64,000 bases of DNA from a bacterium (GCA_043800725.1 JAZDMR010000034.1:4374-68373), one strand, 5' to 3'. Counted from the stretch's first letter, positions 4,135 to 42,999 are shown. The notes: a model not told the origin generated them from the sequence alone. Program-made: numbers and translations.

Positions 4135-7100
4135 TTAAAAGGGTATTTCCTCCCTTATCCTGGGCAGGACTTGGGCGAAATCGCTAAATCCGGGGGGCGG
4201 ATTGGCAATTACCCTTCCGTCATAGGTTATTTCTTCGGCGGGCAACGGATCAGTCAAGGTGCCTCGGAAAGTTCTGCCAAATTTATACGAAGGCGAAATC
4301 ATTAAGCCCTGAGCTTGAAATGCCTTTTCATCAAGCGAATTCTCAATTTCAATTCCGTTAGTTTTATTAGTATATCCCGGGTCGCCAAAGGCAATATATG
4401 AACCGACAATCGTGCGCACGTTGCCGGTTATTATAATCGACCCTTTGACAATTATTCCCAAAGAAGCCAGATCGCGGATTTTATCAAAATTTTCCGCTTG
4501 ATAGACAATATTAACGTCAATCGTTAAATCACCCTGGACCACGATTGTGCCTGCCCCGGAAACAGAATTAGGATTGGTAATATCGCGATTATTAATTTTC
4601 CATTCAGTAATATAGCCTTCTCCTGAATCACACCGGCCAATAGTAAAATCATTATTGATATTATAAACAGTATTATCCAAATTAACTCCTATCGCGCATA
4701 AACCCAGCTCTGTTAAATTTTTATCATCACTATTTACTATTTTATTGCCATACTTATTTTTTCCATCGCCGATATCAGTAATTGTCCCATTCAAATCAAT
4801 ACTGCCTAACACATTGGTATAATTGTTTGACTCACTTGGGAAATAGATTGATTCATAGCCTTGCTGGAAATAAGGGCGATCCATATAACCCGTTTCCACT
4901 TCACCAAAACCCTGTCCATAAAGAGTGCAATAATTAGAAATAGTGCCTGCCGCACTGATCACATAAGTAGCGTTGCACTTGTCAGACGGCGCTGAAGGCG
5001 TGTTGGCGCTGCCGATGTCTGCCCGTGCATAAATATCCCCAAACTTGGTCTGGAGCCAGGCCTGGCTGTAATAATTAGTCCTGGAAAAATCAACCCAGCC
5101 CAATTCGCCTTCTTGCTCAGCGCTGTTTCCGCTCCAGCCAAAGCCGGTTACTTTTCCGGTAGCATCATCAATTGACACTCCATAAGAATCGCATGACGCG
5201 CAAGTATCGCAGAATATTGTGCCAAGACAGACCCCGCCATAAGCACTACACGCCATATCACCGTCAGATGCGCACTCCACCGTATGGTTTCCCTTACATC
5301 GACGGGTACATGATCCGCCGTCAGTCGAACACATATTGCATGATATTTTTGTTTCATCCGCACTATCGTAAACATCAGCTGTTGTATTACAAATTTTACA
5401 AACCTCTACTGTGCATGTTCCAGCTTCCGCATCTTCACATTCATTGCCGGAACACTGGATTGAGGTGTCTCCAGAGCAAAATGTGGCGCAGTTTTTACAC
5501 TCTCCAAATGGTGCAATCACGGCTGGGTTCGCGGTTACGTCCTCACCTCTTAATTTGATCCAGCCGCCGTCGTTTGCGTCTTGTTTTAACGATAATAATC
5601 TGCCCCAGCCCACAACTTTTCCCGTACTCGGATCAAACTTTGCTATATAATTCTGATTACCGTCATTAAAGGGCTGAGCAGGCGGAACGCCGGATTCTTC
5701 CTCAAATAATCCAACTGGCGCATATTTGTTAAAAGACAACCAGCCGGTTGACTGGCAAATATTGATGTTTTCAGAGCAGCGGCAATCCGTATCCTCATCA
5801 CATTCTACTAAATCATTTGAATCACATACTCCTTCTTCTTCACCTGCGGGTATATTGCAATCATCTTTAATATAGGCGTTGGGATCAGCATCACCCAGCC
5901 ATATATATCCGGCGATCGCTCCCTGATTGGCGCCGCTTCTTCTAATATTAACGCCATAAGTAAAGCCGGCGCTTTCGCAGTAATCCTGGTTGGCGCAGCT
6001 GCCGCTGCCCCAGCCAATAGAATCCCTGCTGTTATTGTTCGTGCTAGCACCCAGCCAAAGCCAGCCGAAAATATTGCCGGGAGTGCTGGTAATAATATTG
6101 GATTTTTGGCCAACCGCCCGCACCTCGGTTAAACTGGCCGCTGACACGCCATTTAAGTGTTCTCCATCATTATTGGAGTCTTGGCGCTCCCAGATATGGC
6201 CATTGAATTGGAATATGGCGCCGTTTTGTGAATCATTATCAATATTCCCTACAGCATAGGCATTATATAAATCCAGCGCCGGGTTATAAAAAGCGCTAAC
6301 ATCATTTATTTGGATATTTGCCACGGTTGTATGCTGAAGTTCCCAGAAACCCCTATCACTATCATAATCGTAAATTTGCCCCTTTCCTCCTGGAGTATAT
6401 GCTGACGCCCAAGCAAGATAGCGCGTCTCGCTTACTTTTATCGCCTCAATTCCGGTGAAAGACACATTACCTATTTCATAATCCAAGATCCAGGTATTAC
6501 CATTAATATCGCTATTCCGATAGATTTTCCCCTGATCAGTCACGGCCCAGACATGAGTTGGGTCAACTGCTTCAATGCCAAATACTCCTCCTGTCACATT
6601 CGCAGATGAGGAAAACATTAACTTTTCGTTTATTCCGGACAGCTTTCCATGACGAATTTTGCCATCGTTTTCACCTACAAAAACAACAATTTCAGAAGCA
6701 TCGTCTACCGCAGCAACTGCGGTAAGGTTGGCTCCCATAAAAATATCTTTATCAGGACAAGGCGCGACTGGATCGCAAATAATGCTGCTATTGCGCCAGT
6801 ACCAAATTCTGCCATTATTGCCCACGGCCCAAACCAAATATTGTGCTCCTGATTCATAATAAATTGCATCGACATCATTTAATGTCTCAGGATTTGCGCT
6901 CAAGGCATCATCATCGAATACTTCCCAAAAAGACCCATTATAAAACATCACAGTATCTCGGACTGGCTCTTCTGGCCCCTTATATAGCTGATCACCCACT
7001 ATCCAGCCCAAATATTTCCCATCACTGGGATTCTGAACAAACTTTACCGCGTTAAAGTTTGTCTTAACATCCTGATAAATCTTGGGCGCCTTTTGAACCT

Positions 7101-7215
7101 CCCATTCCAGTCCGGCTTGGGACTGATGAGCCAATAATATGCCGAAACCAGCCAAAATCACGGCGCTTAGCCCGCTGATGAAAATTAGCCTTTTTCTTTT
7201 TAAAGCGTAGGACAT
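4135..7215 (-). CDS. Giant secreted protein (1026 aa): N-terminal signal peptide, beta-propeller-like repeats, and a very Cys-rich central region.
   Basis: Signal-peptide-like N-terminus (MSYALKRKRLIFISGLSAVILAGFGILLAHQSQAG). Blade-like repeats (GNNGRIWYW, GENDGKIRHGK, DQGKIYRNSD). A Cys-dense segment (CDSNDLVECDEDTDCRCSENINIC ... CKNCATFCSGDTSIQCSGNECEDAEAGTCTVEVCKICNTT...). It is separated by 2 nt from the upstream gene. Confidence 0.7.
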   Translation of the reverse strand: MSYALKRKRLIFISGLSAVILAGFGILLAHQSQAGLEWEVQKAPKIYQDVKTNFNAVKFVQNPSDGKYLGWIVGDQLYKGPEEPVRDTVMFYNGSFWEVFDDDALSANPETLNDVDAIYYESGAQYLVWAVGNNGRIWYWRNSSIICDPVAPCPDKDIFMGANLTAVAAVDDASEIVVFVGENDGKIRHGKLSGINEKLMFSSSANVTGGVFGIEAVDPTHVWAVTDQGKIYRNSDINGNTWILDYEIGNVSFTGIEAIKVSETRYLAWASAYTPGGKGQIYDYDSDRGFWELQHTTVANIQINDVSAFYNPALDLYNAYAVGNIDNDSQNGAIFQFNGHIWERQDSNNDGEHLNGVSAASLTEVRAVGQKSNIITSTPGNIFGWLWLGASTNNNSRDSIGWGSGSCANQDYCESAGFTYGVNIRRSGANQGAIAGYIWLGDADPNAYIKDDCNIPAGEEEGVCDSNDLVECDEDTDCRCSENINICQSTGWLSFNKYAPVGLFEEESGVPPAQPFNDGNQNYIAKFDPSTGKVVGWGRLLSLKQDANDGGWIKLRGEDVTANPAVIAPFGECKNCATFCSGDTSIQCSGNECEDAEAGTCTVEVCKICNTTADVYDSADETKISCNMCSTDGGSCTRRCKGNHTVECASDGDMACSAYGGVCLGTIFCDTCASCDSYGVSIDDATGKVTGFGWSGNSAEQEGELGWVDFSRTNYYSQAWLQTKFGDIYARADIGSANTPSAPSDKCNATYVISAAGTISNYCTLYGQGFGEVETGYMDRPYFQQGYESIYFPSESNNYTNVLGSIDLNGTITDIGDGKNKYGNKIVNSDDKNLTELGLCAIGVNLDNTVYNINNDFTIGRCDSGEGYITEWKINNRDITNPNSVSGAGTIVVQGDLTIDVNIVYQAENFDKIRDLASLGIIVKGSIIITGNVRTIVGSYIAFGDPGYTNKTNGIEIENSLDEKAFQAQGLMISPSYKFGRTFRGTLTDPLPAEEITYDGRVIANPPPGFSDFAQVLPRIREEIPF

Positions 7216-7217: not shown

Positions 7218-10200
7218 TTATAGTTTACAGCAACGGTAAAAAGTCGGGTGTCTGGTGCTTGAATTTCTTCGGAGGCCATTTAGGAATTGTCCGGCCGGAC
7301 AGACAGAACCATCCGCGACACTTACCCAATTGCATTGTTCAGTAACATTCTGATCAGCGATCACGTCTTCGGTAACCTGCACCTCACCGGTAAAGTCGGC
7401 AGATATTGCGTTGGTGGCAAAGCAGTACATTTCCGCGCCCACGGGCTGAGGCAAGCTTGAATCATAAAATGCCTGGTCAATACAGCTTAATCCTGAGTTA
7501 TCAATATGGTGACCGATTGACATTGCTTCTGATCGCGAATCCTGGATATCTGCTCCTCCCGCAGCTAATAGCAAATTGCCCTGTCCATCAATCGCCTGAA
7601 TCTTGCATTCGTCAACATTCGGACCGGTCTCAAAACAATAACTTGCGTAAACCACATCCCCTGCCCCTTTAAAAATCCGATAATCAATATTGCCCACATC
7701 ATCGGCGATTTCCAGATCGCTTGCCCATTTCTTGCTCCCATCTGCGGTATTTATCCTGTTCATAAGCAACCTACCGTCGCTTTCTCTGCGCCAAACAGCC
7801 GTCAGTTCACTATCATCGCTGACCAGCAACTGATGATTGATATCTGATGAATTAACGCTTTTACCAGGACCGAGATTAAGTCCGCCGGCCCAGGGCTGGG
7901 AGCCATCACTGACATTGAGCTTAAAAATCCATAGATCATTATTGGGGAATTGAGCTCTGGCATAGACCGCATTGTTATAATAAATCAAGCCTGCGCCGTT
8001 TAAAGTACTGCCGGTAACGTCCACGGTCCAATCTGCTGTTCCATTATTAAGAATATGGCGAGCTCTTAGGGTGCTGACTCCCGAGGTGTATATGATTACC
8101 AGCCCGCCCTGGCCATCTTCAGTCATGCCCTGTAAAACAGTGCCTGGTTCGGATGCCAGCTCCTTGGCGGTATTTGAACCGACAGTGCAACCTAAATCAG
8201 TGGACCACATCCGAGCGCCGTCGTCTTTATTTATTTTCATGCCGCAAATCTTGCCGCCATTATAAAAAGCAAATAATAAATTGTTAGCATTGGCAGATAG
8301 GCTCATATATTGGCCCGAATCAGCTTGGGATACGCCATAAGCGCTGTTTACGGCAGTATCCCAAATTGTGTTACCACTTGCGTCTACTCTGGCCATAAAA
8401 TGCTCGCGACCAATGCCCGGGCAATTGCTGGCCCAGCCCACATATGCCCCGTCGCCGCCATCCGAAATAAAACCAATATCATGGCCTGGCTGGCCGCAAC
8501 GATCCAGCGATGGGTCAAGAGCATTGCCCTCAGCCATGGTTCCGTCATCATCAACTGAAAACACTCTTGCCTGATTATCGGGATTAGTTCGTATGTAAGC
8601 GTACAGCCGGCTGGTTACAGTATTTTGAACCGGCCCTTGCCCGAACGGACCGGCAAAGACGCTGACTTCTGAAGTAAACGGCGAAGGCGACCACTCAGGA
8701 GTAAAATCATAATTTGAGGAATCCGTGTTTCTGGCAATCAAGGTAGGGTTGTCCGCAGAATTATTGACCGCCGTAACAGCCTGTCCGGCTATTGGATTGG
8801 TGAAATAGCCCGCGTAACAATTTTTTAACAAGCCGCAAGAAATCACCTCTCCGTAAATTCCGCTGCCGCCTGAATTAAAAGCCGCTCCGGCAAAACGACC
8901 GGCAATCCCCGCTCCAATCCAGGGTGAACCGTTTAAGCCCAGTCCGGTCGCTTCCAAGGTCGGCTTGCCGTCAATGCCTCCGGATAAATGCAGCCTTTGG
9001 CGATCAGTCGCTGCTATGCCCTGCAGGAATGAACCTGCTTCCGAAGTGTTTGGCCTAACATATATTGACCCTGAAGACAGCCAATCAATATTTATTTCGG
9101 TCTCAAAAGGATCATCAACTAATTTGCCAATTTCCAAAGAATCTGAATTTGTCACTCTGATGGTGCCATCGTAGATGGTTAATTTTTGCGGATCTGGGGA
9201 GCCAGTAGGATTAACCGTCCACTGGGCACCCGCGTTATTAGTCTGATTCAGCTCGTTAACGCAAGTAGCCGTCAGGGTCCATTGACCTTCTTTATCAATC
9301 ACTCCCGGATATTTCAAGCGAAAGGTTGAACCGGCCGAATTGGAAAAAGACACATTATTATAAATTACACTTGTTGGAGAGGCTAGGGTAAATCGCACAT
9401 CTTTTGTTGATACTGTGCCGGTATTGCAGGTGGTTTGAACGTGGGTAATCAAACCGCCGAATTGGGCATTTATACAGCTGCTGTAATTTAAACCTCCATC
9501 AATGCTGCAAGTCGGACTAGTAACAGTAATCGTCTCATCTGGGGGCAGGCCGGAGTTACCTGCTATCACCAAGACTTTTCCGGGATTTGCTACATCGATA
9601 TTCTGCATTTCCACATAAAGCAAACCATTATAAACCCCCAGCAGGCCTGATGCGTTTGCGGGCAGATCGCTGTTGAAAACCAGGCTGCCGTCTGTGGCGC
9701 TTAAAGCTTTTAATGACGTTCCGTTAATAAATAAATAAACAATTCCATTATCTGACACAATTAATTCAAGCCCTTTTTCAAGCGGGCCAAGGCTGCCGCT
9801 ATCCCAGGCTTCCGATCCATTATTGGCATTGAAAAAGATATATCTGGCCTGCCCGGCTGTTGATTCAAATGTATAGTACAATTTTCCATTCCAATAAGCG
9901 CCGTCCCATACTATTCCGTCATAATCTCCGGCTAATTCATGGTGCCAGTTTTTCACACCATTACTGGCATTATAAGAATTTATCCCGCAGACATTTCCAT
10001 AAACAGCGCCGCTATTATAAATTGGGCTATTATTATTGCTATCACCAGCTCCGCAATTTTCCTCAACAGTCCTCCAAATTAATAAGCCATTATCAGCCTC
10101 AAGAGCCACCATACCATGTACACCACCGTCATGATACTTTACAAATAATTTACTTTCACCGTACGCCGGGGTGGCGATTAACTGGGTATCATCACCTGCC

Positions 10201-10805
10201 GCGTCAAGAATTTCTGTCTGCCATAAAATGTCGCCATTGGCCTTATCAAGAGCATATACGCCTCCCGTAGCGCCCTCCTGCACTGAAATAAAAATTTTAT
10301 CTTCTGCCACCACTACGCCATGAGATACGGAATCAATTGACCAAACACTAAGATCTTTTTGCCATAACAATTTTTCAGTTTCAAGATTATACGCGTATAC
10401 AACAGAATGAGCGCCATCAACAGTAAAATAGCTAACGTCACCAGCTATGGCTGCATTGCTTCCATGACTGGTATCCGCAATTAGTTTTTGCTGCGGTACA
10501 TTGACCTCGTTATATTTATACAAACAGGTATTGCTGCCGTATTGGAAAATCGCCTGACCGCCTCTTATCCGAAAACCCTGGACGTCTTCTGAATCCCCCG
10601 CCACGCAGGGTCCGAGATATCCCGCTTCATTATATTCTGCCGGGCCGTAATCGTTTGAAGACCCTATATTGGCTTCATTTTTTTCTATTTGGTTCCAATT
10701 ATCATAAGCCTGTGTACTCGGAGCTATTAATAATCCAAATACTGCAATAAACAAGCTGATGAAAAATATTTTTTTGAGGTTTTTTATCGTCATAATTCGC
10801 AGCAA
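7218..10805 (-). CDS. Giant secreted protein (1195 aa) with PQQ-like beta-propeller repeats; a PilY1-like adhesin candidate. It contains the shared 'IGxxxDD...IYVRP...CYAGYF' module and ends ...FYRCCKL.
   Basis: Signal peptide (FFISLFIAVFGLLIAPSTQA). PQQ/BamB-like repeats (EKLLWQKDL, GDILWQTEIL, NGLLIWRTVE). The C-terminal half is homologous to the N-terminal half of ORF 13302..16826 (PVQNTVTSRLYAYIRTNPDNQARVFSVDDDGTMAEGNALD vs PLQNTPTSRLYLYEGS...VRVNDDGTSVEGNSFGLD). Confidence 0.7.
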   Translation of the reverse strand: MLRIMTIKNLKKIFFISLFIAVFGLLIAPSTQAYDNWNQIEKNEANIGSSNDYGPAEYNEAGYLGPCVAGDSEDVQGFRIRGGQAIFQYGSNTCLYKYNEVNVPQQKLIADTSHGSNAAIAGDVSYFTVDGAHSVVYAYNLETEKLLWQKDLSVWSIDSVSHGVVVAEDKIFISVQEGATGGVYALDKANGDILWQTEILDAAGDDTQLIATPAYGESKLFVKYHDGGVHGMVALEADNGLLIWRTVEENCGAGDSNNNSPIYNSGAVYGNVCGINSYNASNGVKNWHHELAGDYDGIVWDGAYWNGKLYYTFESTAGQARYIFFNANNGSEAWDSGSLGPLEKGLELIVSDNGIVYLFINGTSLKALSATDGSLVFNSDLPANASGLLGVYNGLLYVEMQNIDVANPGKVLVIAGNSGLPPDETITVTSPTCSIDGGLNYSSCINAQFGGLITHVQTTCNTGTVSTKDVRFTLASPTSVIYNNVSFSNSAGSTFRLKYPGVIDKEGQWTLTATCVNELNQTNNAGAQWTVNPTGSPDPQKLTIYDGTIRVTNSDSLEIGKLVDDPFETEINIDWLSSGSIYVRPNTSEAGSFLQGIAATDRQRLHLSGGIDGKPTLEATGLGLNGSPWIGAGIAGRFAGAAFNSGGSGIYGEVISCGLLKNCYAGYFTNPIAGQAVTAVNNSADNPTLIARNTDSSNYDFTPEWSPSPFTSEVSVFAGPFGQGPVQNTVTSRLYAYIRTNPDNQARVFSVDDDGTMAEGNALDPSLDRCGQPGHDIGFISDGGDGAYVGWASNCPGIGREHFMARVDASGNTIWDTAVNSAYGVSQADSGQYMSLSANANNLLFAFYNGGKICGMKINKDDGARMWSTDLGCTVGSNTAKELASEPGTVLQGMTEDGQGGLVIIYTSGVSTLRARHILNNGTADWTVDVTGSTLNGAGLIYYNNAVYARAQFPNNDLWIFKLNVSDGSQPWAGGLNLGPGKSVNSSDINHQLLVSDDSELTAVWRRESDGRLLMNRINTADGSKKWASDLEIADDVGNIDYRIFKGAGDVVYASYCFETGPNVDECKIQAIDGQGNLLLAAGGADIQDSRSEAMSIGHHIDNSGLSCIDQAFYDSSLPQPVGAEMYCFATNAISADFTGEVQVTEDVIADQNVTEQCNWVSVADGSVCPAGQFLNGLRRNSSTRHPTFYRCCKL

Positions 10806-11611
10806 TATAATTTGAATACCGAGGGGTCGGGTTCGGTATCACTGGCGATTCCGGCCAGCAATCGGTTATTAGAACAGATTAATTCGTCTTCTGCGTTGAA
10901 AAATTCCCATTCACAAGCGCCGCGAGTATTGCCTACGGCCCTGACAGTATCTGCAAGCACTTTACCCTCAAACGATCCGGCAATTCCGTTGGGATTATTA
11001 TTGGATGCTTTCAAGGCAGGCTCTAGAACATCAGAAGTATTGGAAATAGCCTGGACGCCGACATATTTATTGCCGCTGAAATAGCCTGCGTAACAAGTCA
11101 TCAGCGCGCCACAATCAGATACCTCGCCTTTAATCGCGCTGCCTACGGCATCTTCAATTCCTCCGTGAAAATATCCTGTTGAAGCGCCGAGTGTTGAATC
11201 AGTATCGGCAGTACCGGCCCAGGTAGCATCCAAAGTATGCTGGCCAGTGATTCCGCCGGTTAATTCCAAGCGCTGGCCAATCGAATCAGGTGATCCCTCA
11301 ATAAAAGATCCTCGAGAGCTGCCGTCTGGCCGAAGATATATTCTTCCGCCTGATTGGATATCGCGCCCAGCATTTCCCAGACGCAATTGAGCTGTGCTGT
11401 CTATCAACAAACTGCCATCGTAAATAGACAGCCGCTTAATAGGGGTAGATGGTCCGGCTGCTCGTGACAACTGAGACTGGTAGGAAATATTAAAGAAAAC
11501 AATTAAACCTAATCCGCCAATCAATCCAACGGATATTAAAATCCTGACCTGCTTGACAGTTAAAATCTGGAAATATTTGCCGAGTTTTTTCTTGTTTGAC
11601 TTATTAGGCAT
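10790..11611 (-). CDS. Membrane-anchored protein (273 aa) that consists essentially of the shared C-terminal module (LRLGNAGRDI...IYLRP...CYAGYF...KLYCCEL).
   Basis: N-terminal TM segment (ISVGLIGGLGLIVFFNI). The rest aligns with the C-terminal ~200 aa of ORF 13302..16826 and with the mid-region of ORF 7218..10805. It overlaps the upstream gene by 16 nt. Confidence 0.6.
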   Translation of the reverse strand: MPNKSNKKKLGKYFQILTVKQVRILISVGLIGGLGLIVFFNISYQSQLSRAAGPSTPIKRLSIYDGSLLIDSTAQLRLGNAGRDIQSGGRIYLRPDGSSRGSFIEGSPDSIGQRLELTGGITGQHTLDATWAGTADTDSTLGASTGYFHGGIEDAVGSAIKGEVSDCGALMTCYAGYFSGNKYVGVQAISNTSDVLEPALKASNNNPNGIAGSFEGKVLADTVRAVGNTRGACEWEFFNAEDELICSNNRLLAGIASDTEPDPSVFKLYCCEL

Positions 11612-11631: not shown

Positions 11632-13320
11632 TTAGCGAAGACCTCCGGCATCCCCCTTGGCCATAATTGGAGAGCTGCCGCCGCATTCGGCATCTTCACA
11701 AACATTTACGCTTTCGCCACCATGATTTGAAAAAATACAACAGTAATCATATGGCGTATCATTGGCTACGCAAAATGGATCACTGGGACAAAGTAAGTTA
11801 ATGTGAAATCCTCTACTTCTCCACTCAGATTCGTTTCCATTATTATCCAGAGCGGAAATTGAGTAATAATAGTTTTCTCCCTGCGTAAGGGCCGGGTCAT
11901 CGTCTTTATAGCCGCCTATCAGAGATTCGCCAATTTTTACGCTATTGCGATAAATATTAAAATGGCTAAATCCGCTGTTTATACCTTCGGGCAAGTCGGT
12001 TTTCGGATGAGTCCAACCCAAGAGCGTATATTCTTCATCTCCTGGTATGGTGCCGTCGGGCAGATGAAGGTTGATACCAATTTGCGAGGTAATTGGAATA
12101 GGCGGAGTCTCATCAACAACCGACCCCGCTTCTAGGAAATTGTCGCCCGAAAACAGGAAAGTCCCGGATCCCTGGGTAGCGCCCCCGACACGATAGTGAT
12201 AATCTAGCGTTGAATCAATATTATCTACCAAAACCGAGTGGCTTATTCTATAAACTGGATCAGCAAGCTTACTGCCATAGTCCTCTGTCAGGCCATGCTC
12301 TACCACTGAGTACATAGGCCAATTCGAGGTCCAGGTAAATTCAGCACTGGTTGGGGTCTGCCATTCAGCAGTAATCTCGGATATTACCGGACAATCTGCT
12401 GGACAATCGATCGGATTCTCGGTACTTTCGGTACACACGCCATCACCGCAAGTAATTTCCGGAACGTGGCCATTAGGATCTCCTAGGACAGCGCTTAAAA
12501 AATGGCTGGAACCGTAAACAGCCGTGATGCCGGTTTGTAGGGTTGTGGGATATTCAGTCTGCAAAAACAAATAATCATTAACCCCTGAACCTTCGGGCCA
12601 GCTTGTACGGCAGTCACCGGGAGGATCTTCATCTTCCTCAAGCAAACACAGTTGAGACCCGGCAGTAATTTCAACGTTGCCGGTAAAATAGCCAGCATAG
12701 GCATTGGGATTGCCATTGTTGCCGCCAAAAATGCCATAGGCTAAAGCGTCTGATGATACTGACCCAGAATGAGCAGCCACACCCAAAACGCCGTAGCTCA
12801 ACCCCGGTAAGGCAACTACGGAACTAGACAGTCCGTAAAATCCATATGTATCTATAAGGGTTGGAGCGATGGCTCCAGAATGTAGGGCAAAGTTAGCATC
12901 ATCAGCCGCCTGGAAAGTGATTCCGCCTTGGATATGAATAAAATCAGAATCAGCACTAGTTGGAGATAAGTGAAGGATAGTGCCAATGGATCCGCCGGGC
13001 TCCCAGCCATTGATACAGGAATCGCCTAGGCAAAACTGCTCGTCTCCGTTTAACATTACGTTCAAGTTTCCTGAGGTAATAATTTCTCCAAGACTTGTCA
13101 AGCTTCCACTAGTATTCAGCTGACTGGATAATTTGAGAGGACCCCAACGCGTTTGGAGATCCGAGCCACCTGTAAGAATGGGCGCCTGGATATTGCCCTC
13201 CGGCGGATTTAATATTGGTTCATTAAAAGCCTGGGCAGTCCAAGCTAACACCAAGCCCGCTATAAAAAATAAACTGATACTGATGATACTTATGTTTCTA
13301 TTCATGGGTTTCCACAGCAA
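11632..13320 (-). CDS. Secreted protein (562 aa) with a Cys-bracketed N-terminal motif, an FN3 (PAP-N-like) domain and a CGDGxC...DC motif.
   Basis: Signal peptide (ISISLFFIAGLVLAWTAQA). Motifs FCLGDSCINGW and AYAGYFTGNVEITAGSQLCLLEEDEDPPGDCRTSWP. ITCGDGVCTESTENPIDCPADC. FN3-like region AEFTWTSNWPMYSVVEHGLTEDYG...DYHYRV. Confidence 0.65.
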   Translation of the reverse strand: MLWKPMNRNISIISISLFFIAGLVLAWTAQAFNEPILNPPEGNIQAPILTGGSDLQTRWGPLKLSSQLNTSGSLTSLGEIITSGNLNVMLNGDEQFCLGDSCINGWEPGGSIGTILHLSPTSADSDFIHIQGGITFQAADDANFALHSGAIAPTLIDTYGFYGLSSSVVALPGLSYGVLGVAAHSGSVSSDALAYGIFGGNNGNPNAYAGYFTGNVEITAGSQLCLLEEDEDPPGDCRTSWPEGSGVNDYLFLQTEYPTTLQTGITAVYGSSHFLSAVLGDPNGHVPEITCGDGVCTESTENPIDCPADCPVISEITAEWQTPTSAEFTWTSNWPMYSVVEHGLTEDYGSKLADPVYRISHSVLVDNIDSTLDYHYRVGGATQGSGTFLFSGDNFLEAGSVVDETPPIPITSQIGINLHLPDGTIPGDEEYTLLGWTHPKTDLPEGINSGFSHFNIYRNSVKIGESLIGGYKDDDPALTQGENYYYSISALDNNGNESEWRSRGFHINLLCPSDPFCVANDTPYDYCCIFSNHGGESVNVCEDAECGGSSPIMAKGDAGGLR

Positions 13321-16300
13321 TATATTCGATCATTTTCCCCGGGAGGGTTGTTTTCATAGCCGGAAATAAATCCATTATTAGGACAAACCAAATCCGCCCA
13401 AACCAGCGTTTCCCAATGGCACTCGGAAAAAAGCAGCTTTTCTGATTGGATATCCCCATCAGCCACGAAGTTGCCTTCAAATAATGCCGAAACATTATTC
13501 TCGGGACTGGCGCCGGCGCTGTTTTCAACTTTCAGGGCCGGGATGATCGAATCGCTTGATTCTGATAATAATCCTACTTCGTTGTTGCCTGCAAAATAAC
13601 CGGCGGCGCAGCCTCCTGCCGCGGCGCAGCTTACCACTTCGCCGTAAACAGCCGAGCCGCCCGCATTGTTATTGCTACCACTGAAGAAAGAAGCCACGGC
13701 ACTGGCGCCGTTACTGCTATTTTGGGTGCCGCTACCCTGGGCAAGGATTGTCGGCTGACCGGCAATACCGTAAGGAAAATGCAATCTCTGATCAGTCGTG
13801 CTGTCAGTCCCCTCCCAGAAGGCTCCCGCCAATGAATTATTTGGCCTAAGATAAATATTGCCCGTGGAGGCGATATCCCGCCCGGCATTCCCGATCTCCA
13901 GAGTATCACCGCTTGACTGGGCTATCTGAATAACGCCTTGATAGACTGACAGTTTTTGATTGGCAGAAAACGGCCAAGCACCAACGTCCCACTGCGCCTG
14001 ACTGGTGTCTTGCTGGCTGGCGGAATCCTTGCAAATTGCACTGATAGTCCATTGGCCTTCTTCATTTATCAATTTGGGATTATGCAGCGTGTAAGTATTA
14101 CCCACAACGTCACTGGCGATTAAATCTTCATATTTATAGCCAGAAGGAGCATTTAGGGTAAATTGTACCTGGGCAATATCGGCCGCCGCAGCTCCCACCG
14201 GGGAAATATAAACGTCAGTATTGATTCCGTCTTCCTCTTGTCTTTCCCAGACAATATTATTCCCGTTGATATGGGGAGCCGAATCAAAGCGAGGATGATC
14301 AGTTATTTGAATATCTCCGCTGTCATCCGCCGTGCCGAATAAACCGTCCGGCCCCAGGTCATAAACCATGACTTCAAAAAAATCAAAATCAACATCATCA
14401 TATCGCGAAAAAACAATCTTGGTCCCTGACATGCTTGGCAAATAATCAGTCAGTCCGGAAGTTGTCAGGCGGACCGTTCCAATATCATCCGTCGTATCCG
14501 GTGAACCGTCCGGCCCCAGGTCATACATATAGATATCAAAATTACACGTATCACATTCCCGAGCGGTCCACAGTACATATCGGGAATAAATTACCGGCCG
14601 CATCCCGGTAAGCGAATTTCCTTGAGGAAAATCAGATATTTCAAATGCTTCAGCATTGGTTAGATCCACCACAAATATTGAATCGTCTTCCGGGCCGCCT
14701 CCTTGGACACGGACTACGCCGTATCTGCCTCCCAGCTCCCCAGCATCCGCGTCAGTATGGCCAATCGTGTCAAAATCCGTTACTTCCGTGTCTCCCAGAT
14801 CATCACCAGTGCCCAATCTGCCATCAGGGCCCACATCATAAATGAACATATGGCCGTCGGGATTATTTAAAAATCGCTCATACAAAATATATCTGCCGTT
14901 AAAGCCAGCGTCATCAAGCTGATCTACCCGGAGACTGCCCGGATCAGTTTCTCCGGCTGCCCAGTTATACACCCAAATATAATCTTCCGCCCCAACATTC
15001 CCCGCAAAAAAAACATGGTCATCAGTAACATCCTCAACTAGGGCTGAACCTTGAGCGATTATTTCTGCTTCAGTGCCATCGTCCGGGGTGCCGAATAATT
15101 TATCTGCACCTAAATCATAACGGCTAATATAGCCGCTCGCTTCATAAATAACGTACTGATTGGTTAAATAGGGAAATCTCCAAGTCGTATCAGCCACATC
15201 ATTTAGCGCGCCTTCAGAAAATGGCTGGGCAGCGCCCGGGTCACAGCTAACTCGGACATGGCTTAATACGTTGCCATACTGCGCTTCGCTGCATAAGCCG
15301 AAGTCCGCCCCGCCATTGATGCTACAGATGGGATCGGTCACTGTGGGCAAGCTCCCAAGACAGTACTCTTGCACAGCCACTCTTATACCGCCGGGCTCGC
15401 CATAACCATGGCCAATGCACGATAGGCTATCATTTCCAACAATTTTATTATGTATGCCAAATTGCGGTTGTTGGTTATACGCTTCACTGCTTGGATCCAC
15501 AGTAATTCCATTACCGGGGAATATCTTTTGCCCTGCTCCGTCAAATCCTTGTATGGAACAGTCCCACTCATTGCCAATATCTTCACAAATTGCAAAATAT
15601 GAAACGCTCTGGGGTCCGGTAAAGTGATTAACAATACCTTGAAAGGGGGTTCTAACATAAATTAGCTTATCACTGGGCCAGACTTTTGTTCCATCCTCCA
15701 TATTGATTCTGTTGGTATAATTACTGCTATCCGCACTCAGCTCCCATTGTAAAGAAATCGCAGTATTATCAACCTGGACAATACGCGGATTATGAAAAAC
15801 ATTAGATACGTTATACGGTTCAGCCCAAGGCTGAGACCCATCAGCCACCTTTACGCGATCAATAAATAATTCTTTATTTGGCACTATGTCCTCGGTCCAG
15901 ATCATATAAACCGAACCATCGTAATAAAATGCACTGGTAACGCTTACATCAGGATCAGCTGTGAAGTCAACGCTCCATGCTAAATCACCGGCCGAATCAA
16001 TTCTATGCGCGCGCCCGGAACCAGACAGTATAATAATCCCGCCCTGTCCATCAGAAACCACTGTATGGACATACTCTCCCGTGAGTAGCCTACGGCCATC
16101 TTGCCCACCACATACTTGACTAGTCCACATACTTGCACTTGTCGTGCGATTTATTTTTACGCCACAGACATAATTTCCGTCTCTAAAGGTCATTATGGCA
16201 TGGCCATCACTTGCTAAAACTACATGGTTCCAGGCAGGAGATGTGTCTGTACCAAGCTGACCAGGACCTATCTCCCAAATTATGCCTCCATTTCCATTAA

Positions 16301-16826
16301 GCCGGGCAAGATATATATTATCTCCGTCAAATATAATACTCTTAGAAGAGGCGACATAAGCGCCATCTAAACCATCTGATATCATCCCCTTTTTGCGCTC
16401 ACCACCAACGGAAAATAGCTCTCGGTCCAAACCAAACGAATTGCCTTCAACTGAGGTGCCATCATCATTTACTCGCACCGGATGAAAATGATCATCAGGT
16501 CCTGGCTCGGAAACTGAGCCTTCATATAGATATAATCGACTGGTAGGGGTGTTTTGCAGTGGTCCGCTTAACATTCTATCTTGGTCATCGGCAATAGAGG
16601 AAAAATAAAGCGGCGGATCCCACTGCGGCACCAAAGAAAAGTCGGCTCGGGCCACCTCTGTTTTATTAATCACATAAACAACCAGTAACACACTGGCCAT
16701 CATCAAGCTAATGCTAATAATCACGGCCAACCGGATTTTTTTCATTATTGGATTTTTTGCGTAATTATCTGGCATAGGAATAAAATTACCAGCCCCCGCC
16801 GCCTTCCCAGCCGCCGGGATCTTCAT
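13302..16826 (-). CDS. Giant secreted protein (1174 aa) with a beta-propeller-rich N-half and the shared C-terminal module; ends ...DRIYCCGNP.
   Basis: TM/signal segment (LAVIISISLMMASVLLVVYVI). Repeated DGxxDDxGxxxxTD-like segments. C-terminus LEIGNAGRDIASTGNIYLRPNNSLAGAFWEG...VYGEVVSCAAAGGCAAGYFAGN.... The N-half is homologous to the C-half of ORF 7218..10805. Confidence 0.7.
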   Translation of the reverse strand: MKIPAAGKAAGAGNFIPMPDNYAKNPIMKKIRLAVIISISLMMASVLLVVYVINKTEVARADFSLVPQWDPPLYFSSIADDQDRMLSGPLQNTPTSRLYLYEGSVSEPGPDDHFHPVRVNDDGTSVEGNSFGLDRELFSVGGERKKGMISDGLDGAYVASSKSIIFDGDNIYLARLNGNGGIIWEIGPGQLGTDTSPAWNHVVLASDGHAIMTFRDGNYVCGVKINRTTSASMWTSQVCGGQDGRRLLTGEYVHTVVSDGQGGIIILSGSGRAHRIDSAGDLAWSVDFTADPDVSVTSAFYYDGSVYMIWTEDIVPNKELFIDRVKVADGSQPWAEPYNVSNVFHNPRIVQVDNTAISLQWELSADSSNYTNRINMEDGTKVWPSDKLIYVRTPFQGIVNHFTGPQSVSYFAICEDIGNEWDCSIQGFDGAGQKIFPGNGITVDPSSEAYNQQPQFGIHNKIVGNDSLSCIGHGYGEPGGIRVAVQEYCLGSLPTVTDPICSINGGADFGLCSEAQYGNVLSHVRVSCDPGAAQPFSEGALNDVADTTWRFPYLTNQYVIYEASGYISRYDLGADKLFGTPDDGTEAEIIAQGSALVEDVTDDHVFFAGNVGAEDYIWVYNWAAGETDPGSLRVDQLDDAGFNGRYILYERFLNNPDGHMFIYDVGPDGRLGTGDDLGDTEVTDFDTIGHTDADAGELGGRYGVVRVQGGGPEDDSIFVVDLTNAEAFEISDFPQGNSLTGMRPVIYSRYVLWTARECDTCNFDIYMYDLGPDGSPDTTDDIGTVRLTTSGLTDYLPSMSGTKIVFSRYDDVDFDFFEVMVYDLGPDGLFGTADDSGDIQITDHPRFDSAPHINGNNIVWERQEEDGINTDVYISPVGAAAADIAQVQFTLNAPSGYKYEDLIASDVVGNTYTLHNPKLINEEGQWTISAICKDSASQQDTSQAQWDVGAWPFSANQKLSVYQGVIQIAQSSGDTLEIGNAGRDIASTGNIYLRPNNSLAGAFWEGTDSTTDQRLHFPYGIAGQPTILAQGSGTQNSSNGASAVASFFSGSNNNAGGSAVYGEVVSCAAAGGCAAGYFAGNNEVGLLSESSDSIIPALKVENSAGASPENNVSALFEGNFVADGDIQSEKLLFSECHWETLVWADLVCPNNGFISGYENNPPGENDRIYCCGNP

Positions 16827-18468
16827 ATTGTAGATAACTTTCAGGAATTTCTTTTAACACAACAGGTGAACCGCCCGGCAGGGGTTCCCCACAGCCCAGC
16901 TCCCCATAGCACACGGGGTACAAAGGATTGGTGCAGTTTGAATTGCTGACGCAAGCGGTCGGCACATGGATTATTTCTGCATTAGATGGCTCTGACTCAT
17001 TGCCCAGCATATCAACCGCAGTAATCTCATATGAATAGTAGGCATCCTGGTCAACAAAATAATCAATATACCAAGCACTGGTCGTAGTATCGAAGGGAAT
17101 GCCCTCACGGTAAATAACAAAATGCGAAAAACCAGAACCCCCCGGATTATCCTGCAAAGTCTGGTACCAAGCGAGAGGTATCTGATCGGGCTTCGGCGTA
17201 GTGTTATGTAAATTGGCCGGCGGGAAAGGAGGGGTCGTGTCAATTAAAGAAGTAAAATTTAAAACACTTGATGCTCTGTAAGCGCCCGAATCAGCGATTG
17301 ATTGAACCTGATAATAATAAGCGGTCGAATAATTCAGGCTGGACAATAATACCGCGTGATCATAGGCCAGGGTCTCATCAACAATTTCGCTACCCAGGTC
17401 CGGGGTAGTGCCATAATTAACAACCGTAGAAGCAGGCGCGCTGGTTTGCCAGGTGATTACCGCCGTTCCATCCGTAATATTGGTAGGTGATACCTTATAA
17501 ACTGTAAAACAATCAACTTCGCAAGTAAAAATGGTTTCGCCGTTATTGCAGCTGCCGTCTCCGCAGGTAATTCCTATGCCTAAACCGGACGGATCGCCGC
17601 CCAGAATAAGGCTGGTAAAGACTGAGGTCGAGCCAGGACTCAAATCAACATTGCCCTGCTGGTTGGTTTCAGGGTCAAGCTTCACAAAATCGCCCTCCAT
17701 TTCTCCTGTGGGCCATTCATACTTACAATCTCCGGCAAAATCCAGGCAACCGTCAATTTCTACCTTACCCTTGAAATAAGCTGCGTAGGCCGGACCGACT
17801 AATGACGGGGCAGTTCCCCCAACACCTATTGAGAAGGGACTATTTGAACCAGCAACTCCATAAACGCCAGCTGACAAGTGGGCGGGCAGAGTGTCTCCGC
17901 TGCCCGCATACCCCATAATTGCGTGAGAAAGATTGGAACTCGAACGTCCGGCTTTGGCATACAAAGCTATCGGGCTCCCACTTTCATTTATATCGCCTTC
18001 GATAATCATATAACCCTCTTTCTCTTTCGTTGGATCAGGATCGCCCAATCTGATAAAGCCCAAGTCCGGATCAACCGGATTAATATGAACAAAATTACCT
18101 TCTTCAAAATCAAAATTGTTCTTACAAAGTGCTCCATCTCCGGTGTCGTTGATGCAAATTTCCCCGTCGTCATCTGGCAGGTCGGGAGATACTCGAAAAT
18201 TTTCATCTACTGATAACAGATTATTTGTTTGAATGCCCTGATCCAGAACTTCCAAGGTATTTTTAATAGTCAAATCTCCCTGAACGGTTTGAGGTGTTAC
18301 TGAAGTATTCAGAGGCGCTTCAGTGGTCCCCCCCCAAGGAGCCGCGCCAGCCCCGTCATTCCAGACAGGATCAACCCAGGCAGCTCTGACATATGAAATG
18401 CCAATAAATAAACTGACTAAAACAAGACCGGTAATCACAGAGTATTTTATTTTATGCTGAATAGTCAC
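16786..18468 (-). CDS. Secreted protein (560 aa), paralog of 11632..13320 and 18491..19591, with an FN3 (PAP-N-like) domain.
   Basis: Signal peptide (VITGLVLVSLFIGISYVRA). Motifs ICINDTGDGALCKNNF and AYAAYFKGKVEIDGCLDFAGDCKYEWP. ITCGDGSCNNGETIFTCEVDC. FN3-like region TAVITWQTSAPASTVVNYGTTPDLG...YYYQV. Confidence 0.65.
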   Translation of the reverse strand: MTIQHKIKYSVITGLVLVSLFIGISYVRAAWVDPVWNDGAGAAPWGGTTEAPLNTSVTPQTVQGDLTIKNTLEVLDQGIQTNNLLSVDENFRVSPDLPDDDGEICINDTGDGALCKNNFDFEEGNFVHINPVDPDLGFIRLGDPDPTKEKEGYMIIEGDINESGSPIALYAKAGRSSSNLSHAIMGYAGSGDTLPAHLSAGVYGVAGSNSPFSIGVGGTAPSLVGPAYAAYFKGKVEIDGCLDFAGDCKYEWPTGEMEGDFVKLDPETNQQGNVDLSPGSTSVFTSLILGGDPSGLGIGITCGDGSCNNGETIFTCEVDCFTVYKVSPTNITDGTAVITWQTSAPASTVVNYGTTPDLGSEIVDETLAYDHAVLLSSLNYSTAYYYQVQSIADSGAYRASSVLNFTSLIDTTPPFPPANLHNTTPKPDQIPLAWYQTLQDNPGGSGFSHFVIYREGIPFDTTTSAWYIDYFVDQDAYYSYEITAVDMLGNESEPSNAEIIHVPTACVSNSNCTNPLYPVCYGELGCGEPLPGGSPVVLKEIPESYLQYEDPGGWEGGGGW

Positions 18469-18490
18469 AAATTCTTTTTATTAAAAAAAT

Positions 18491-19591
18491 CTAGCGGCAA
18501 TCGACCGGACAAGTGCTATGGCTCTCGCCATTTCCCCCATAATTACATAGTCCGTCGCCGCAGGTTATTGATACTGGAGTAGACGGTAACGGCTCGCCAA
18601 GTACAAATTGCCCGGTTTTGGCCGAGCCTTCCACTTTTACTTCACCGGTTTGAAATACCGGCGTGGGCGAATCTTGGACCTTGACCAAAGAATCATCTGC
18701 TATCGGCCCCCAGTTGCTCGCGTTGCGGCAGTCGCCGTTTAAACAAAGATCTCCTTCAACTCCAACCCGTCCGTCAAATCGTCCTGCCCAAGACACAGGA
18801 TCTTCATTAAACCCACCGTCTGAGCCCCAAACGCCCCGAGTTATATTATTCGGCGTACAAACACCAGGCAGACAAGGGTCAGGATCATCCTCTACCAAAC
18901 AAGAGACATTAGGAGTTGACCCGCCTTGGCAATAAGCCGCATTAGTTGCCAGTCCAGCAATGCCATAGGTAGCAAGGTTGTTATTAGCACATATACCATC
19001 ATTGCAGTCTGAATCTTCATCACAAGGATTGCCATCACTCTCTCCACCAGAACAAAAAAGGCTAGCACTTTCCCCAACAATAGCCGCGGTACGATCTCCG
19101 GTGGGCTGATCAGCAGTGGCTTGTATGCCAAACTGATTGGCTAAAGGAATTATTTTTGAATTACTTTCAGGTCCAGCTGCCAGACTGGTTAAGCTGGGGG
19201 TACCTAAATCAGCCGTACCTGGATTTAAATGCACATAATTACCTGTTAAAGATCCCCAGCTTGAGATACACGCGTCATTTAAGCACAATTGCTTTCCATC
19301 AGCTATTTGTATATCGCTGTTGGTGTTTAATGTTGTTGTGTTTATGGTGTTTTGAATTTCCAGATTCCCCTGGACAATTAATCCGCCTTGTTTGGTTTGA
19401 GCTACATGGGTAGATGCTAAATTCTCATCACCAGCAATGATTGGCTGAGCCGTGGTCGAGTTCGGGGCGGTTTGGTCCGGTTCTGACCAAAAAGCCAAAC
19501 CCTGGCCAATTCCAAAAACCAGAGCTAATAGTAATATAGCGGTTATTAGGCCATATCGCTGGCTTTTAAGATTGAACCGGCGATTAAGCAT
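18491..19591 (-). CDS. Secreted protein (366 aa), smallest member of the paralog family; ends with ITCGDGLCNYGGNGESHSTCPVDCR.
   Basis: Signal peptide (LITAILLLALVFGIGQGLA). Motifs QLCLNDACISSW and WAGRFDGRVGVEGDLCLNGDCRNASNW. It is the first gene after the divergent promoter region. Confidence 0.6.
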   Translation of the reverse strand: MLNRRFNLKSQRYGLITAILLLALVFGIGQGLAFWSEPDQTAPNSTTAQPIIAGDENLASTHVAQTKQGGLIVQGNLEIQNTINTTTLNTNSDIQIADGKQLCLNDACISSWGSLTGNYVHLNPGTADLGTPSLTSLAAGPESNSKIIPLANQFGIQATADQPTGDRTAAIVGESASLFCSGGESDGNPCDEDSDCNDGICANNNLATYGIAGLATNAAYCQGGSTPNVSCLVEDDPDPCLPGVCTPNNITRGVWGSDGGFNEDPVSWAGRFDGRVGVEGDLCLNGDCRNASNWGPIADDSLVKVQDSPTPVFQTGEVKVEGSAKTGQFVLGEPLPSTPVSITCGDGLCNYGGNGESHSTCPVDCR

Positions 19592-19708: not shown

Positions 19709-19790
19709 AGCATAAAAGGGAGGAGTCAGTCGAAAGATAAAATACAGATTCTAAGTGACAAAATTCTACCATTTTCACTGACTAGCGTCA

Positions 19791-26982: not shown

Positions 26983-27073
26983 GGAGAGGTGCGCCGAATG
27001 GTAAGGCAGCGGTTTGCTAAACCGTAACGGTCTTTAAAGCCGTTTGTGGGTTCGACTCCCACCCTCTCCGCCA
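26983..27073 (+). tRNA. tRNA-Ser (anticodon GCT), type II with a long variable arm and an encoded CCA.
   Basis: Acceptor GGAGAGG/CCTCTCC. Anticodon stem GCGGT/ACCGT with loop TTGCTAA. Long variable arm AACGGTCTTTAAAGCCGTT. T arm GTGGG-TTCGACT-CCCAC. Discriminator G followed by CCA. Confidence 0.8.
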
Positions 27074-27585: not shown

Positions 27586-27675
27586 GGAGGCGTGACAGAG
27601 TGGACGATTGTACCGGTCTTGAAAACCGGAGTGCCTGAAAGGGCACCGGAGGTTCGAATCCTCCCGCCTCCGCCA
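27586..27675 (+). tRNA. tRNA-Ser (anticodon TGA), type II, with an encoded CCA.
   Basis: Acceptor GGAGGCG/CGCCTCC. D stem ACAG/TTGT. Anticodon stem CCGGT/ACCGG with loop CTTGAAA. Long variable arm AGTGCCTGAAAGGGCACC. T arm GGAGG-TTCGAAT-CCTCC. Discriminator G followed by CCA. Confidence 0.8.
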
Positions 27676-28351: not shown

Positions 28352-28367
28352 TAACATTCATGATATG

Positions 28368-28444
28368 CGCCCGTAGCTCAGTTGGATAGAGCGCAGGCTT
28401 GCGGAGCCTGAGGTCGTAGGTTCGATCCCTGCCGGGCGCACCAG
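28368..28444 (+). tRNA. tRNA-Arg (anticodon GCG as read) with an encoded CCA.
   Basis: Acceptor GCGCCCG/CGGGCGC. D arm GCTC-AGTTGGATA-GAGC. Anticodon stem CAGGC/GCCTG with loop TTGCGGA. T arm GTAGG-TTCGATC-CCTGC. Discriminator A followed by CCA. Confidence 0.8.
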
Positions 28445-38367: not shown

Positions 38368-38386
38368 TCGGTGTTTGAGTAGTTTT

Positions 38387-42503: not shown

Positions 42504-42999
42504 TATTGTTATCCGATAATTTTTCAGACTGTCGTTGAATCTTAATATCGGGGGTTAATTCTCCCTCATCGGGAGCATGGTAAGCCCCTCCAGTATCAAC
42601 CACTAAAGAAAGAGCAGCCAATCTGGATTTGGTTAAAACCTTTTTTTTGATATCCGGCGTAGTAATAGTGATATCCAAATCTTTTTTCCTTAATTCTGAA
42701 GTGCTGACCTGTTTATTCCAGATGCGCAGTCTCGGTTCGCGAATTGTAATTATCAAGTTCAATAGAAAAAGATGAAAAGGGCGCCCGTTTACTCTGACAA
42801 AGGCCAAAACAATAGTAATGACCGCTAAAATAATTGCGCTGAATAGAAAAAACCAAAAGTTGTTATTCAACCGATAAATCAATTCATAGCTGAAAAAAAT
42901 CAAGCCTACTCCGGATAAAAGAATTACAAACTGCCGAACGGAGATCGGGCCGATTACCTTATCTTCCACGTCAATGAATTGTGGTACTACAAATTGCAT
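42493..42999 (-). CDS. Small two-TM membrane protein (168 aa); VirB3/PrgI-like candidate.
   Basis: Two hydrophobic helices. Its position immediately upstream of the VirB4 genes matches the conserved VirB3-VirB4 order. Confidence 0.4.
   Translation of the reverse strand: MQFVVPQFIDVEDKVIGPISVRQFVILLSGVGLIFFSYELIYRLNNNFWFFLFSAIILAVITIVLAFVRVNGRPFHLFLLNLIITIREPRLRIWNKQVSTSELRKKDLDITITTPDIKKKVLTKSRLAALSLVVDTGGAYHAPDEGELTPDIKIQRQSEKLSDNNNGE

Follow-up and report, generated by a model that had tools for sequence, protein, structure and literature searches.

Here, we describe three genes, A, B and C, located on the minus strand of a 64,000-nucleotide stretch of DNA from an ultrasmall bacterium (GCA_043800725.1 JAZDMR010000034.1:4374-68373), which is referred to below as the window and in which positions are counted from the first letter. 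The three genes belong to a cluster of seven genes that is followed by genes for a type IV pilus (T4P). Their products share a core and a short cysteine block, and we propose, with a probability of about 0.6, that they are exported, disulfide-stabilised modular surface proteins of an unnamed family in Patescibacteria, the bacteria that are also called the Candidate Phyla Radiation (CPR), and function alongside the T4P.

Genes A, B and C and their shared core

The original prediction, which was made from the sequence alone, had proposed three paralogous open reading frames (ORFs) at this locus. All three ORFs are present at the proposed positions on the minus strand and agree with the deposited gene calls (Table 1). 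C is identical over its entire length to a deposited 366-aa protein (P0012; 100% identity; "MAG: hypothetical protein V1853_05095", where MAG is a metagenome-assembled genome). The deposited versions of A (P0013, 557 aa) and B (P0001, 550 aa) start at aa 6, i.e., five codons downstream, and at aa 11, respectively; because these gene calls start later, A and B probably begin 15–30 nt downstream of the ORF starts given here. The longest ORFs also overlap at two junctions, i.e., at 16786-16826 (end of B and start of a gene for a 1174-aa protein) and at 13302-13320 (end of the latter gene and start of A). A, B and C are true paralogs, as had been predicted. In BLASTP comparisons, A and B are 29% identical over 544 aa (E 7e-40), A and C are 26% identical (E 9e-17), and B and C are 23% identical (E 1e-11), and the three-way alignment has 52 invariant columns.

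The elements common to the three proteins occur in the same order, i.e., a signal-like segment, two CL…C…W hairpins with an AYAGYFxGxV motif before the second hairpin, and a block that begins with CGDG (henceforth, the CGDG block). Every motif listed in the original prediction was recovered by ORF translation, alignment and pattern scan, and the motifs are collinear. The core is rich in Gly, Ser and Thr and spans ~270-300 aa. The first hairpin reads FCLGDSCINGW in A and LCLNDACISSW in C, while in B (ICINDTGDGALCKNNF) the loop is longer and Phe replaces Trp. The segment from the AGYF-type motif to the second hairpin reads AYAGYFTGNVEI…CL…GDCRTSW in A, AYAAYFKGKVEIDGCLDFAGDCKYEW in B and WAGRFDGRVGVEGDLCLNGDCRNASNW in C. 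In an alignment of 89 family members, the following positions (B numbering) are at least 90% conserved: P34, which is part of an (A)W-x-E/D-P motif immediately behind the hydrophobic N-terminus; Q60, G64 and L66 of a QTKxGxL motif; both Cys residues of the first hairpin (C105 and C115); A229, F232 and G234 of AYAGYFxG; C241, C248 and W252 of the second hairpin; G290; and C302, G303, D304, C307, E311, C316, D319 and C320 of the CGDG block. The core is predicted to be of the beta type and stapled by two short-range disulfide hairpins. An additional four-Cys insertion, C.GG…C….DC…C, is present twice in C between aa ~180 and 245 (18845-19054, minus strand), once in C orthologs and not at all in A and B; this insertion has weak similarity to DUF7107 (E 0.39).

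Signal-like N-termini had been predicted for all three proteins and were recognised in all three by inspection. Each has a basic–hydrophobic–AxA layout with a putative cleavage site (slash) at AQA/F in A, VRA/A in B and GLA/F in C, and the family consensus around this site is …AQALA/AW.EP. In the AlphaFold2 model of B, the N-terminal helix only covers aa 9-22. These features are consistent with Sec-dependent export and cleavage by signal peptidase I (SPase I). Moreover, the number of Cys residues is even in all seven proteins of the cluster and, among the 89 family members, in 86 (binomial p ~2e-22). Of the three members with an odd number, two (P0140, P0151) carry a HINT domain, the catalytic Cys of which is unpaired. 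This parity strongly supports the idea that the proteins are oxidised and extracytoplasmic. CPR genomes have been described to be enriched in an MdbA-like oxidoreductase and VKOR for the formation of disulfides in secreted proteins (PMC6744442).

Downstream of the CGDG block, A and B but not C, which is the shortest of the three, contain the FN3/PAP-N-like region that had been predicted. In Pfam searches, PF16656 matches B with 33.7 bits relative to a cutoff of 30 bits, and A with a sub-threshold score of 18 bits; A aligns with B across the FN3 region and has an FN3-like PHROG match at aa 448-502. AlphaFold2 modelled two FN3 beta-sandwiches in B with a pLDDT >90 (aa ~300-530), and a Foldseek search of the PDB with this model matched only tandem FN3 structures (E 4e-10). 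Similarly, a deeper profile of the core gave only FN3 matches among the PDB sequences. The designed propellers 'Cake' and 'Bagel', which were matched by the core profile with an E-value of ~1e-6 in the PDB, were discarded as an artefact of eight summed repeats with an i-Evalue of ~100 each. The idea of a phage tail fibre was also dropped, as the PHROGs match concerns only the FN3 part and viral contigs contained no relative.

An exhaustive search of 1.84 billion representatives with a core profile built from A, B and C, which match by construction, returned 895 clusters at E ≤ 1e-3 and 124 at E ≤ 1e-10. The whole core is present in ~89 of the 150 best hits listed. The other hits among these 150 only contain sub-modules, e.g., the N-terminal ~110 residues or a ~90-residue Gly-rich/AGYF segment in one to three copies; the core itself is, therefore, modular. 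C-terminal to the core, the 89 members with a whole core carry FN3/PAP_N domains (11 members), InlB B-repeats (Flg_new_2; six members) or HINT domains (three members), while most have no recognisable module. In the three HINT-bearing members (P0136, P0140, P0151), the Hint/pretoxin-HINT domain lies at, or a few residues from, the C-terminus with no toxin behind it, which suggests autoprocessing or covalent attachment of a surface protein. Word-index searches with the three proteins gave 11, 7 and 11 hits and greatly under-reported the family; locus scans identified three loci in genomes and two in metagenomes. The relatives with a named source are from Candidatus Nomurabacteria, Candidatus Kerfeldbacteria and MAGs of the "Patescibacteria group". 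No entry in Pfam, NCBIfam, PHROGs or the PDB sequences covers the core of A, B or C. As searches of the same four databases were blank for both core and CGDG block, the view that this combination belongs to no named family was borne out.

The CGDG block

The sequences at the ITCGDG region are ITCGDGVCTESTENPIDCPADC in A, ITCGDGSCNNGETIFTCEVDC in B and ITCGDGLCNYGGNGESHSTCPVDC in C. In a six-frame scan, the full pattern of the block occurs exactly three times in the window, each time in frame in A, B or C. The consensus of 109 canonical 19-mers is C-G-[DN]-G-x-C-x3-E-[TS]-x3-C-x2-D-C, in which the four Cys residues are spaced C-x4-C-x8-C-x3-C over 19 residues with DC at the end. The Glu at position 10, which was not demanded by the search pattern, is invariant in 109/109 of these 19-mers. 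The loop is longer in some variants, among them the blocks of A and C, and in some relatives it holds additional Cys pairs. In the AlphaFold2 model of B, the block has a pLDDT of 81–94 and is confidently placed against the first FN3 domain.

Two aspects of the original prediction need correction. First, the position of the block had been described as varying among the three proteins; however, the block always follows directly behind the core, and C ends there while A and B extend further. Second, the block had been described as disulfide-knotted or knottin-like. Knottins (inhibitor cystine knots) have six Cys residues in three disulfides; the block has exactly four conserved Cys residues, and because it has only four, which can form at most two disulfides, it cannot be a cystine knot. 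In some relatives, just two of these Cys residues are retained. Three sequences (P0018, P0069, P0139) keep C2 and C4 but have other residues in place of both C1 and C3; this joint loss, therefore, suggests C1–C3 and C2–C4 pairing. These replacements were identified by manual inspection instead of the hmmalign-based table of Cys co-loss, which was unreliable due to the variable loop lengths.

The block is a free-standing mini-module and is not specific to the A/B/C family. The modular reuse noted in the original prediction is real and occurs on a larger scale than had been claimed, with 6–13 tandem copies in unrelated proteins: 13 copies in P0119, 10 each in P0029 and P0120, nine in P0109, eight each in P0095 and P0099, and six in P0161. 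The period of these arrays is usually ~24 residues. The arrays are often preceded by a signal peptide, either ordinary or of the lipoprotein type, and some lie between other domains. In other bacteria, such arrays are found between Ig/FN3-type domains. P0161 is a hypothetical lipoprotein annotated as "hypothetical protein" in several Myxococcus species (WP_284664586.1), and P0029, which is from a Deltaproteobacteria MAG, has beta-helix and weak FN3-like matches alongside its array.

We considered whether the block is a known repeat. The original prediction had named an established repeat, such as a Myxococcus Cys-rich repeat or a dockerin, as the outcome that would speak against it. In A, B and C, Pfam and NCBIfam searches for TIGR02232/PF13948 gave no match at E ≤ 1, and in eight proteins with 6–13 blocks, neither TIGR02232/PF13948, dockerin nor any other repeat family in Pfam-A or NCBIfam matched at E ≤ 1. 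This includes the six-copy Myxococcus protein P0161; the models of the Myxococcus repeat and of dockerin, accordingly, do not detect the block. A profile of 66 block sequences had no match at E ≤ 10 among the PDB sequences, a search of the PDB sequences with P0161 gave nothing meaningful, and a tblastn search of plasmids with a tandem-block protein gave no match. Our literature search for the CGDG block or TIGR02232 returned nothing relevant; a 2026 preprint on cysteine-rich repeats was set aside, as it concerns different, fungal repeats. Altogether, the block is a widespread, uncatalogued 19-residue module with four Cys residues. It is probably a rigid connector with two disulfides. That it binds Ca2+ is pure speculation.

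The gene cluster and the type IV pilus

The genes beyond the window were read from the MAG contig JBDRPK010000004.1 (131 kb), which contains the window. On the minus strand, the gene order is C, B, the gene for the 1174-aa protein, A, the genes for a 273-aa, a 1195-aa and a 1026-aa protein, pilM, the gene for a 446-aa protein, and pilO. Beyond the window, pilO is followed by genes for a 97-aa protein, PilB, a response regulator, PilT, PilC and one canonical pilin (MKKGFTLIELL…). Neighbouring genes of the cluster overlap or are separated by ≤22 nt, except for a gap of 88 nt before pilM. A regex scan for class III (prepilin) signals gave no match in the cluster proteins or the whole window; the sole match is the pilin downstream of pilC, outside the window. 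Likewise, PF07963 (N_methyl) had no Pfam hit in A, B or C.

Of the seven genes of the cluster, three are A/B/C-like, three belong to a second paralog family (group 2) and one encodes a giant protein. Group-2 proteins follow the pattern LSxYxG…LGNAGRDI…IYLRP…CYAGYF…C.W…C…YCC at the C-terminus, and group-2 segments are found in the window at 10790-11611, 13302-14180 and 7218-10805 (minus strand). In a comparison of the A/B/C core with group 2 (273-aa-like), hhalign returned a probability of 7.7% and only aligned the AGxFxGxV motif; homology between the two is not shown. Two observations concern group 2. Two of its members in Kerfeldbacteria (301-aa and 647-aa genes) also have a CL…GDC…W hairpin. 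Moreover, the 97-aa protein between pilO and pilB (L004 10685-10978) ends in …NIGNAGRDNPF and, thus, has the GNAGRD hexapeptide in common with group 2, which may be a coincidence or reflect a shared interaction motif.

The cluster was found in five loci, i.e., the window, L001 (the complete Nomurabacteria genome CP060223), L006, L007 (a distant Patescibacteria MAG) and L009 (a Kerfeldbacteria MAG). L001, L007 and L009 all contain a divergent LemA/M48 pair, three A/B/C-like genes, three group-2 genes and the gene for the giant protein; the group-2 family is present three times each in L001 and L009. Across loci, the protein identities to the window fall to ~25–30%. In the window and in L007, pilM directly follows the gene for the giant protein. 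The L006 contig only covers the start of the cluster and ends inside the third (A-like) gene. This contig (CAZWTD010000023.1) was deposited as 'uncultured Gammaproteobacteria bacterium', and its A/B/C counterparts are 44–50% identical to those in the window; because it has the LemA/M48 pair and the first of the C/B/1174/A genes, it is probably a mis-binned Patescibacteria contig.

A scan for promoters and terminators performed at chance level (38 promoter-like sites versus 37 expected), and only individual sites are noted here. One such site lies in the 88-nt gap before pilM (4101-4129, minus strand; TTGCCA-17-TATAAT with TG, 11/12) and another in the divergent intergenic region upstream of C (19763-19791, minus strand; 10/12 with TG).

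Elsewhere in the window, a conjugative, type IV secretion system (T4SS)-like gene cluster is present at 32658-44385 (minus strand). Four consecutive genes at 46260-63924 (minus strand) encode giant proteins of 1065, 1548, 1524 and 1629 aa with FN3/PAP_N, Big_7, Y_Y_Y, Glucodextran_B and CBM_4_9 domains; in a six-frame pattern scan, no CGDG block was detected in these four proteins. This region, which lies apart from the pilus locus, looks like a second block of genes for large surface proteins. Three tRNA genes (26983..27070, 27586..27672 and 28367..28440, plus strand) lie downstream of clpB and a gene for a ComF-like phosphoribosyltransferase.

Table 1. Coordinates of genes, motifs and domains in the window
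Feature	Position	Strand	Properties and evidence
Gene C	18491..19591	-	366 aa; signal-like N-terminus, core, extra Cys-rich insertion (aa ~180-245), C-terminal CGDG block
Gene B	16786..18468	-	560 aa; core, CGDG block, two FN3, Cys-rich tail, GGSPxxLK…GGGGW end
Gene A	11632..13320	-	562 aa; architecture as in B, including GGSPxxLK…GGGGW end
First Cys hairpin of C (LCLNDAC, then ISSW)	19268..19288	-	pattern scan
First Cys hairpin of B (ICINDTGDGALC)	18124..18159	-	pattern scan
First Cys hairpin of A (FCLGDSC)	13015..13035	-	pattern scan
WAGRF (AGYF-type) motif of C, then hairpin CLNGDC…W	18776..18790	-	pattern scan, alignment
YAAYF motif of B, then CLDFAGDC…W	17773..17787	-	pattern scan, alignment
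YAGYF motif of A, then CL…GDC…W	12685..12699	-	pattern scan, alignment
CGDG block of C, CGDGLCNYGGNGESHSTCPVDC	18497..18562	-	pattern scan
CGDG block of B, CGDGSCNNGETIFTCEVDC, canonical 19-mer	17509..17565	-	pattern scan; AlphaFold2 pLDDT 81-94
CGDG block of A, CGDGVCTESTENPIDCPADC	12391..12450	-	pattern scan
Two tandem FN3 domains of B (aa ~323-501)	16966..17502	-	PF16656, AlphaFold2, Foldseek
Two FN3-like domains of A (aa ~313-505, approximate)	11806..12384	-	weak PF16656, alignment to B
1174-aa protein	13302..16826	-	C-terminal ~290 aa = group-2 module (GNAGRD…IYLRP…AAGYF…YCC end)
273-aa group-2 protein	10790..11611	-	member of the second paralog family
1195-aa protein	7218..10805	-	PQQ-type beta-propeller (PF13360, E 8e-26) and group-2 elements
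1026-aa protein, 32 Cys	4135..7215	-	last cluster gene before pilM; counterpart in L001, L007, L009
pilM	2949..4046	-	PF11104, E 4e-45
446-aa protein, pilN position	1603..2943	-	no family hit; role inferred from position only
pilO	926..1606	-	PF04350
VirB4/TraG-type ATPase	39824..41836	-	T4SS-like cluster
PrgI-family protein	42493..42999	-	T4SS-like cluster
T4SS_pilin-domain protein	37234..38367	-	T4SS-like cluster
T4SS_pilin domain fused to SLT lytic transglycosylase	34096..35292	-	T4SS-like cluster
KaiC/RadA-like ATPase	32658..34001	-	T4SS-like cluster

Interpretation and comparison with known systems

Patescibacteria make up a large share of bacterial diversity. To our knowledge, all cultivated Patescibacteria live attached to other microbes, and how hosts are recognised and held is poorly understood. 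The T4P is the one conserved surface machine implicated so far in CPR attachment (PMC6744442, PMC12206443). Moreover, large Cys-rich extracellular proteins have been proposed to function in attachment in CPR bacteria, i.e., Peregrinibacteria (PMC4736985), and TM7x PilX2 of Saccharibacteria is a candidate for a pilus-linked beta-propeller adhesin with a noncanonical signal peptide (PMC12206443).

We suggest the following scenario for A, B and C. The proteins would be exported by Sec and probably cleaved after the AxA-type site, which would expose a mature N-terminus with (A)W/F-x-E/D-P … QTKxGxL. This would be followed by the Gly/Ser/Thr-rich, beta-type core, in which the two CL…C…W motifs would act as disulfide staples, with AYAGYFxGxV ahead of the second, and then by one copy of the 19-residue four-Cys module, probably a rigid connector with C1–C3 and C2–C4 disulfides. 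The proteins would end in variable C-terminal modules, i.e., none in C and two FN3 spacers plus the Cys-rich tail in A and B. Because the cluster lies beside pilM and the pilus genes, we infer that its products could be part of an apparatus for cell-surface contact and attachment that works alongside the T4P of these episymbiotic bacteria. A, B and C are neither pilins nor enzymes.

Several points weigh against this scenario. The function is proposed from sequence features and gene context, with no direct functional homology for A, B or C, and the link to the pilus draws only on synteny and precedent, in five loci of related small genomes. The adjacency to pilM can be checked in only two of these, i.e., the window and L007; common inheritance rather than selection may explain the gene order; and the conservation of unrelated housekeeping genes in this neighbourhood speaks against a strict coupling to the pilus. 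Given the strong promoter-like site before pilM, the pilus genes may form a separate transcription unit. A, B and C also lack any pilin signal. As for the structure, the core of B (aa 28–295) was modelled by AlphaFold2 with a pLDDT of only 40–70 using 89 sequences, and the suggested disulfide pairing in the block derives from three sequences in two lineages (P0018; P0069 with P0139). For C, a model based on a 12-sequence alignment had an overall pLDDT of 38.

One alternative is that the cluster encodes non-canonical pilus subunits or a tip complex, in which the A/B/C-like, group-2 and giant/propeller proteins replace the minor pilins and PilY1, assemble at the tip or base of the pilus and possibly include a heterotrimeric fibre of the three paralogs. 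The pilus operon with its one canonical pilin and no minor pilins fits this idea, and so do the position of the cluster directly upstream of pilM in the window and L007 and the conserved 3 + 3 + 1 gene composition. The failure of the monomer AlphaFold2 model of the core would also be in line with it; monomer models often fail for intertwined oligomeric fibres. Similarly, the beta-propeller in the 1195-aa member is as in PilY1, and TM7x PilX2 has a propeller too (PMC12206443). However, A, B and C have neither a class III signal peptide (G/FTLIE) nor an N_methyl hit, and instead of a long hydrophobic alpha-1 helix with a globular head, they have a hydrophobic segment with AxA and a Pro-rich stretch behind it; the possible separate promoter before pilM also speaks against this idea. 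We, therefore, consider such a tip complex unlikely. We are equally doubtful about the boldest version of the idea, in which the cluster would encode an unrecognised T4P accessory complex that lacks pilin signals, e.g., a disulfide-stapled heterotrimeric fibre or tip that would fill the place of minor pilins and PilY1 in host attachment, and the block would represent a new and widely distributed domain family with two disulfides that possibly binds Ca2+.

Alternatively, the proteins could be generic structural proteins of the surface or associated with the cell wall, such as envelope or S-layer-like adhesins, that have no functional tie to the pilus and whose neighbourhood is an inherited gene order. 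LemA, the M48 protease and ClpB, which are unrelated housekeeping proteins, are encoded in the same conserved neighbourhood, the family is large and has C-terminal modules typical of adhesins, and further giant FN3/Ig/CBM surface proteins are encoded in the window at some distance from the pilus genes. By contrast, under this explanation it would be surprising that the composition of the cluster is kept between Nomurabacteria and Kerfeldbacteria at only ~25–30% identity and that pilM is again adjacent in L007, which is similarly divergent, and we regard it as improbable. A role of A, B and C as polymorphic toxins or as hydrolases similar to purple acid phosphatases is essentially excluded. PF16656 represents the N-terminal domain of these phosphatases, and a pretoxin-HINT domain is present in three relatives; however, only this FN3-like accessory domain of the phosphatases is found, scans of A, B and C with Pfam and NCBIfam revealed no metallophosphatase or other catalytic domain, and HINT is absent from A, B and C and lies at or near the C-terminus of the relatives with no toxin domain beyond it. 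Weighing these explanations, we favour exported surface proteins that act alongside the T4P.

An unannotated, conserved set of genes for exported, disulfide-rich proteins beside pilus genes provides concrete candidates for missing attachment or accessory components in Patescibacteria. Both the ~300-aa Patescibacteria core and the 19-residue block merit formal domain definitions, and a domain model of the block would help to annotate many secreted proteins that are now labelled 'hypothetical'. None of these findings upsets what is expected of surface proteins in CPR bacteria.

The block has several features in common with the Myxococcus Cys-rich repeat (TIGR02232/PF13948, DUF4215), which follows the pattern CGDG-x5-6-E-x-CDDGN…C…C. 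Both are short, secreted and, in surface proteins, used in tandem, both start with CGDG and have a Glu ~9–10 residues further on, and the block, like the repeat, occurs in Myxococcus proteins. However, CDDGN is absent from 109/109 canonical blocks, and the Cys spacing differs from that of the Myxococcus repeat. Dockerins (PF00404) bind Ca through paired DxDxDG loops and have no Cys, whereas the block is defined by its four Cys residues and has no Pfam hit. LDL-receptor class A and EGF-like Ca-binding modules have six Cys residues and known folds and are detected by Pfam. The block resembles these modules in being tiny, in combining conserved Cys with acidic residues (D3, E10 and D18) and in its use in tandem between beta-sandwich domains, but it differs by having four Cys residues and no Pfam hit.

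At the level of whole proteins, A, B and C resemble the Cys-rich proteins of Peregrinibacteria in their CPR origin, signal peptide, many Cys residues and predicted extracellular location; compared by description, the latter are much larger, averaging ~1,655 aa, and contain more Cys (~7%) (PMC4736985). As in minor pilins and PilY1-type adhesins, e.g., TM7x PilX2 and P. aeruginosa PilY1, the genes are found beside T4P genes and the proteins combine a hydrophobic N-terminal segment with grafted modules; unlike minor pilins, A, B and C lack a prepilin-peptidase site, a signature of the pilin fold and an N_methyl hit. With FN3 surface proteins and the accessory modules of glycosidases (PF00041/PF16656), A and B share two genuine FN3 domains; however, in A and B these are only C-terminal spacers, and the core and block that define the family lie outside any FN3 family. 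Altogether, A, B and C are of a known kind, i.e., modular, Cys-rich surface proteins that are exported and composed of small disulfide repeats, in which the core and the block themselves are uncatalogued.

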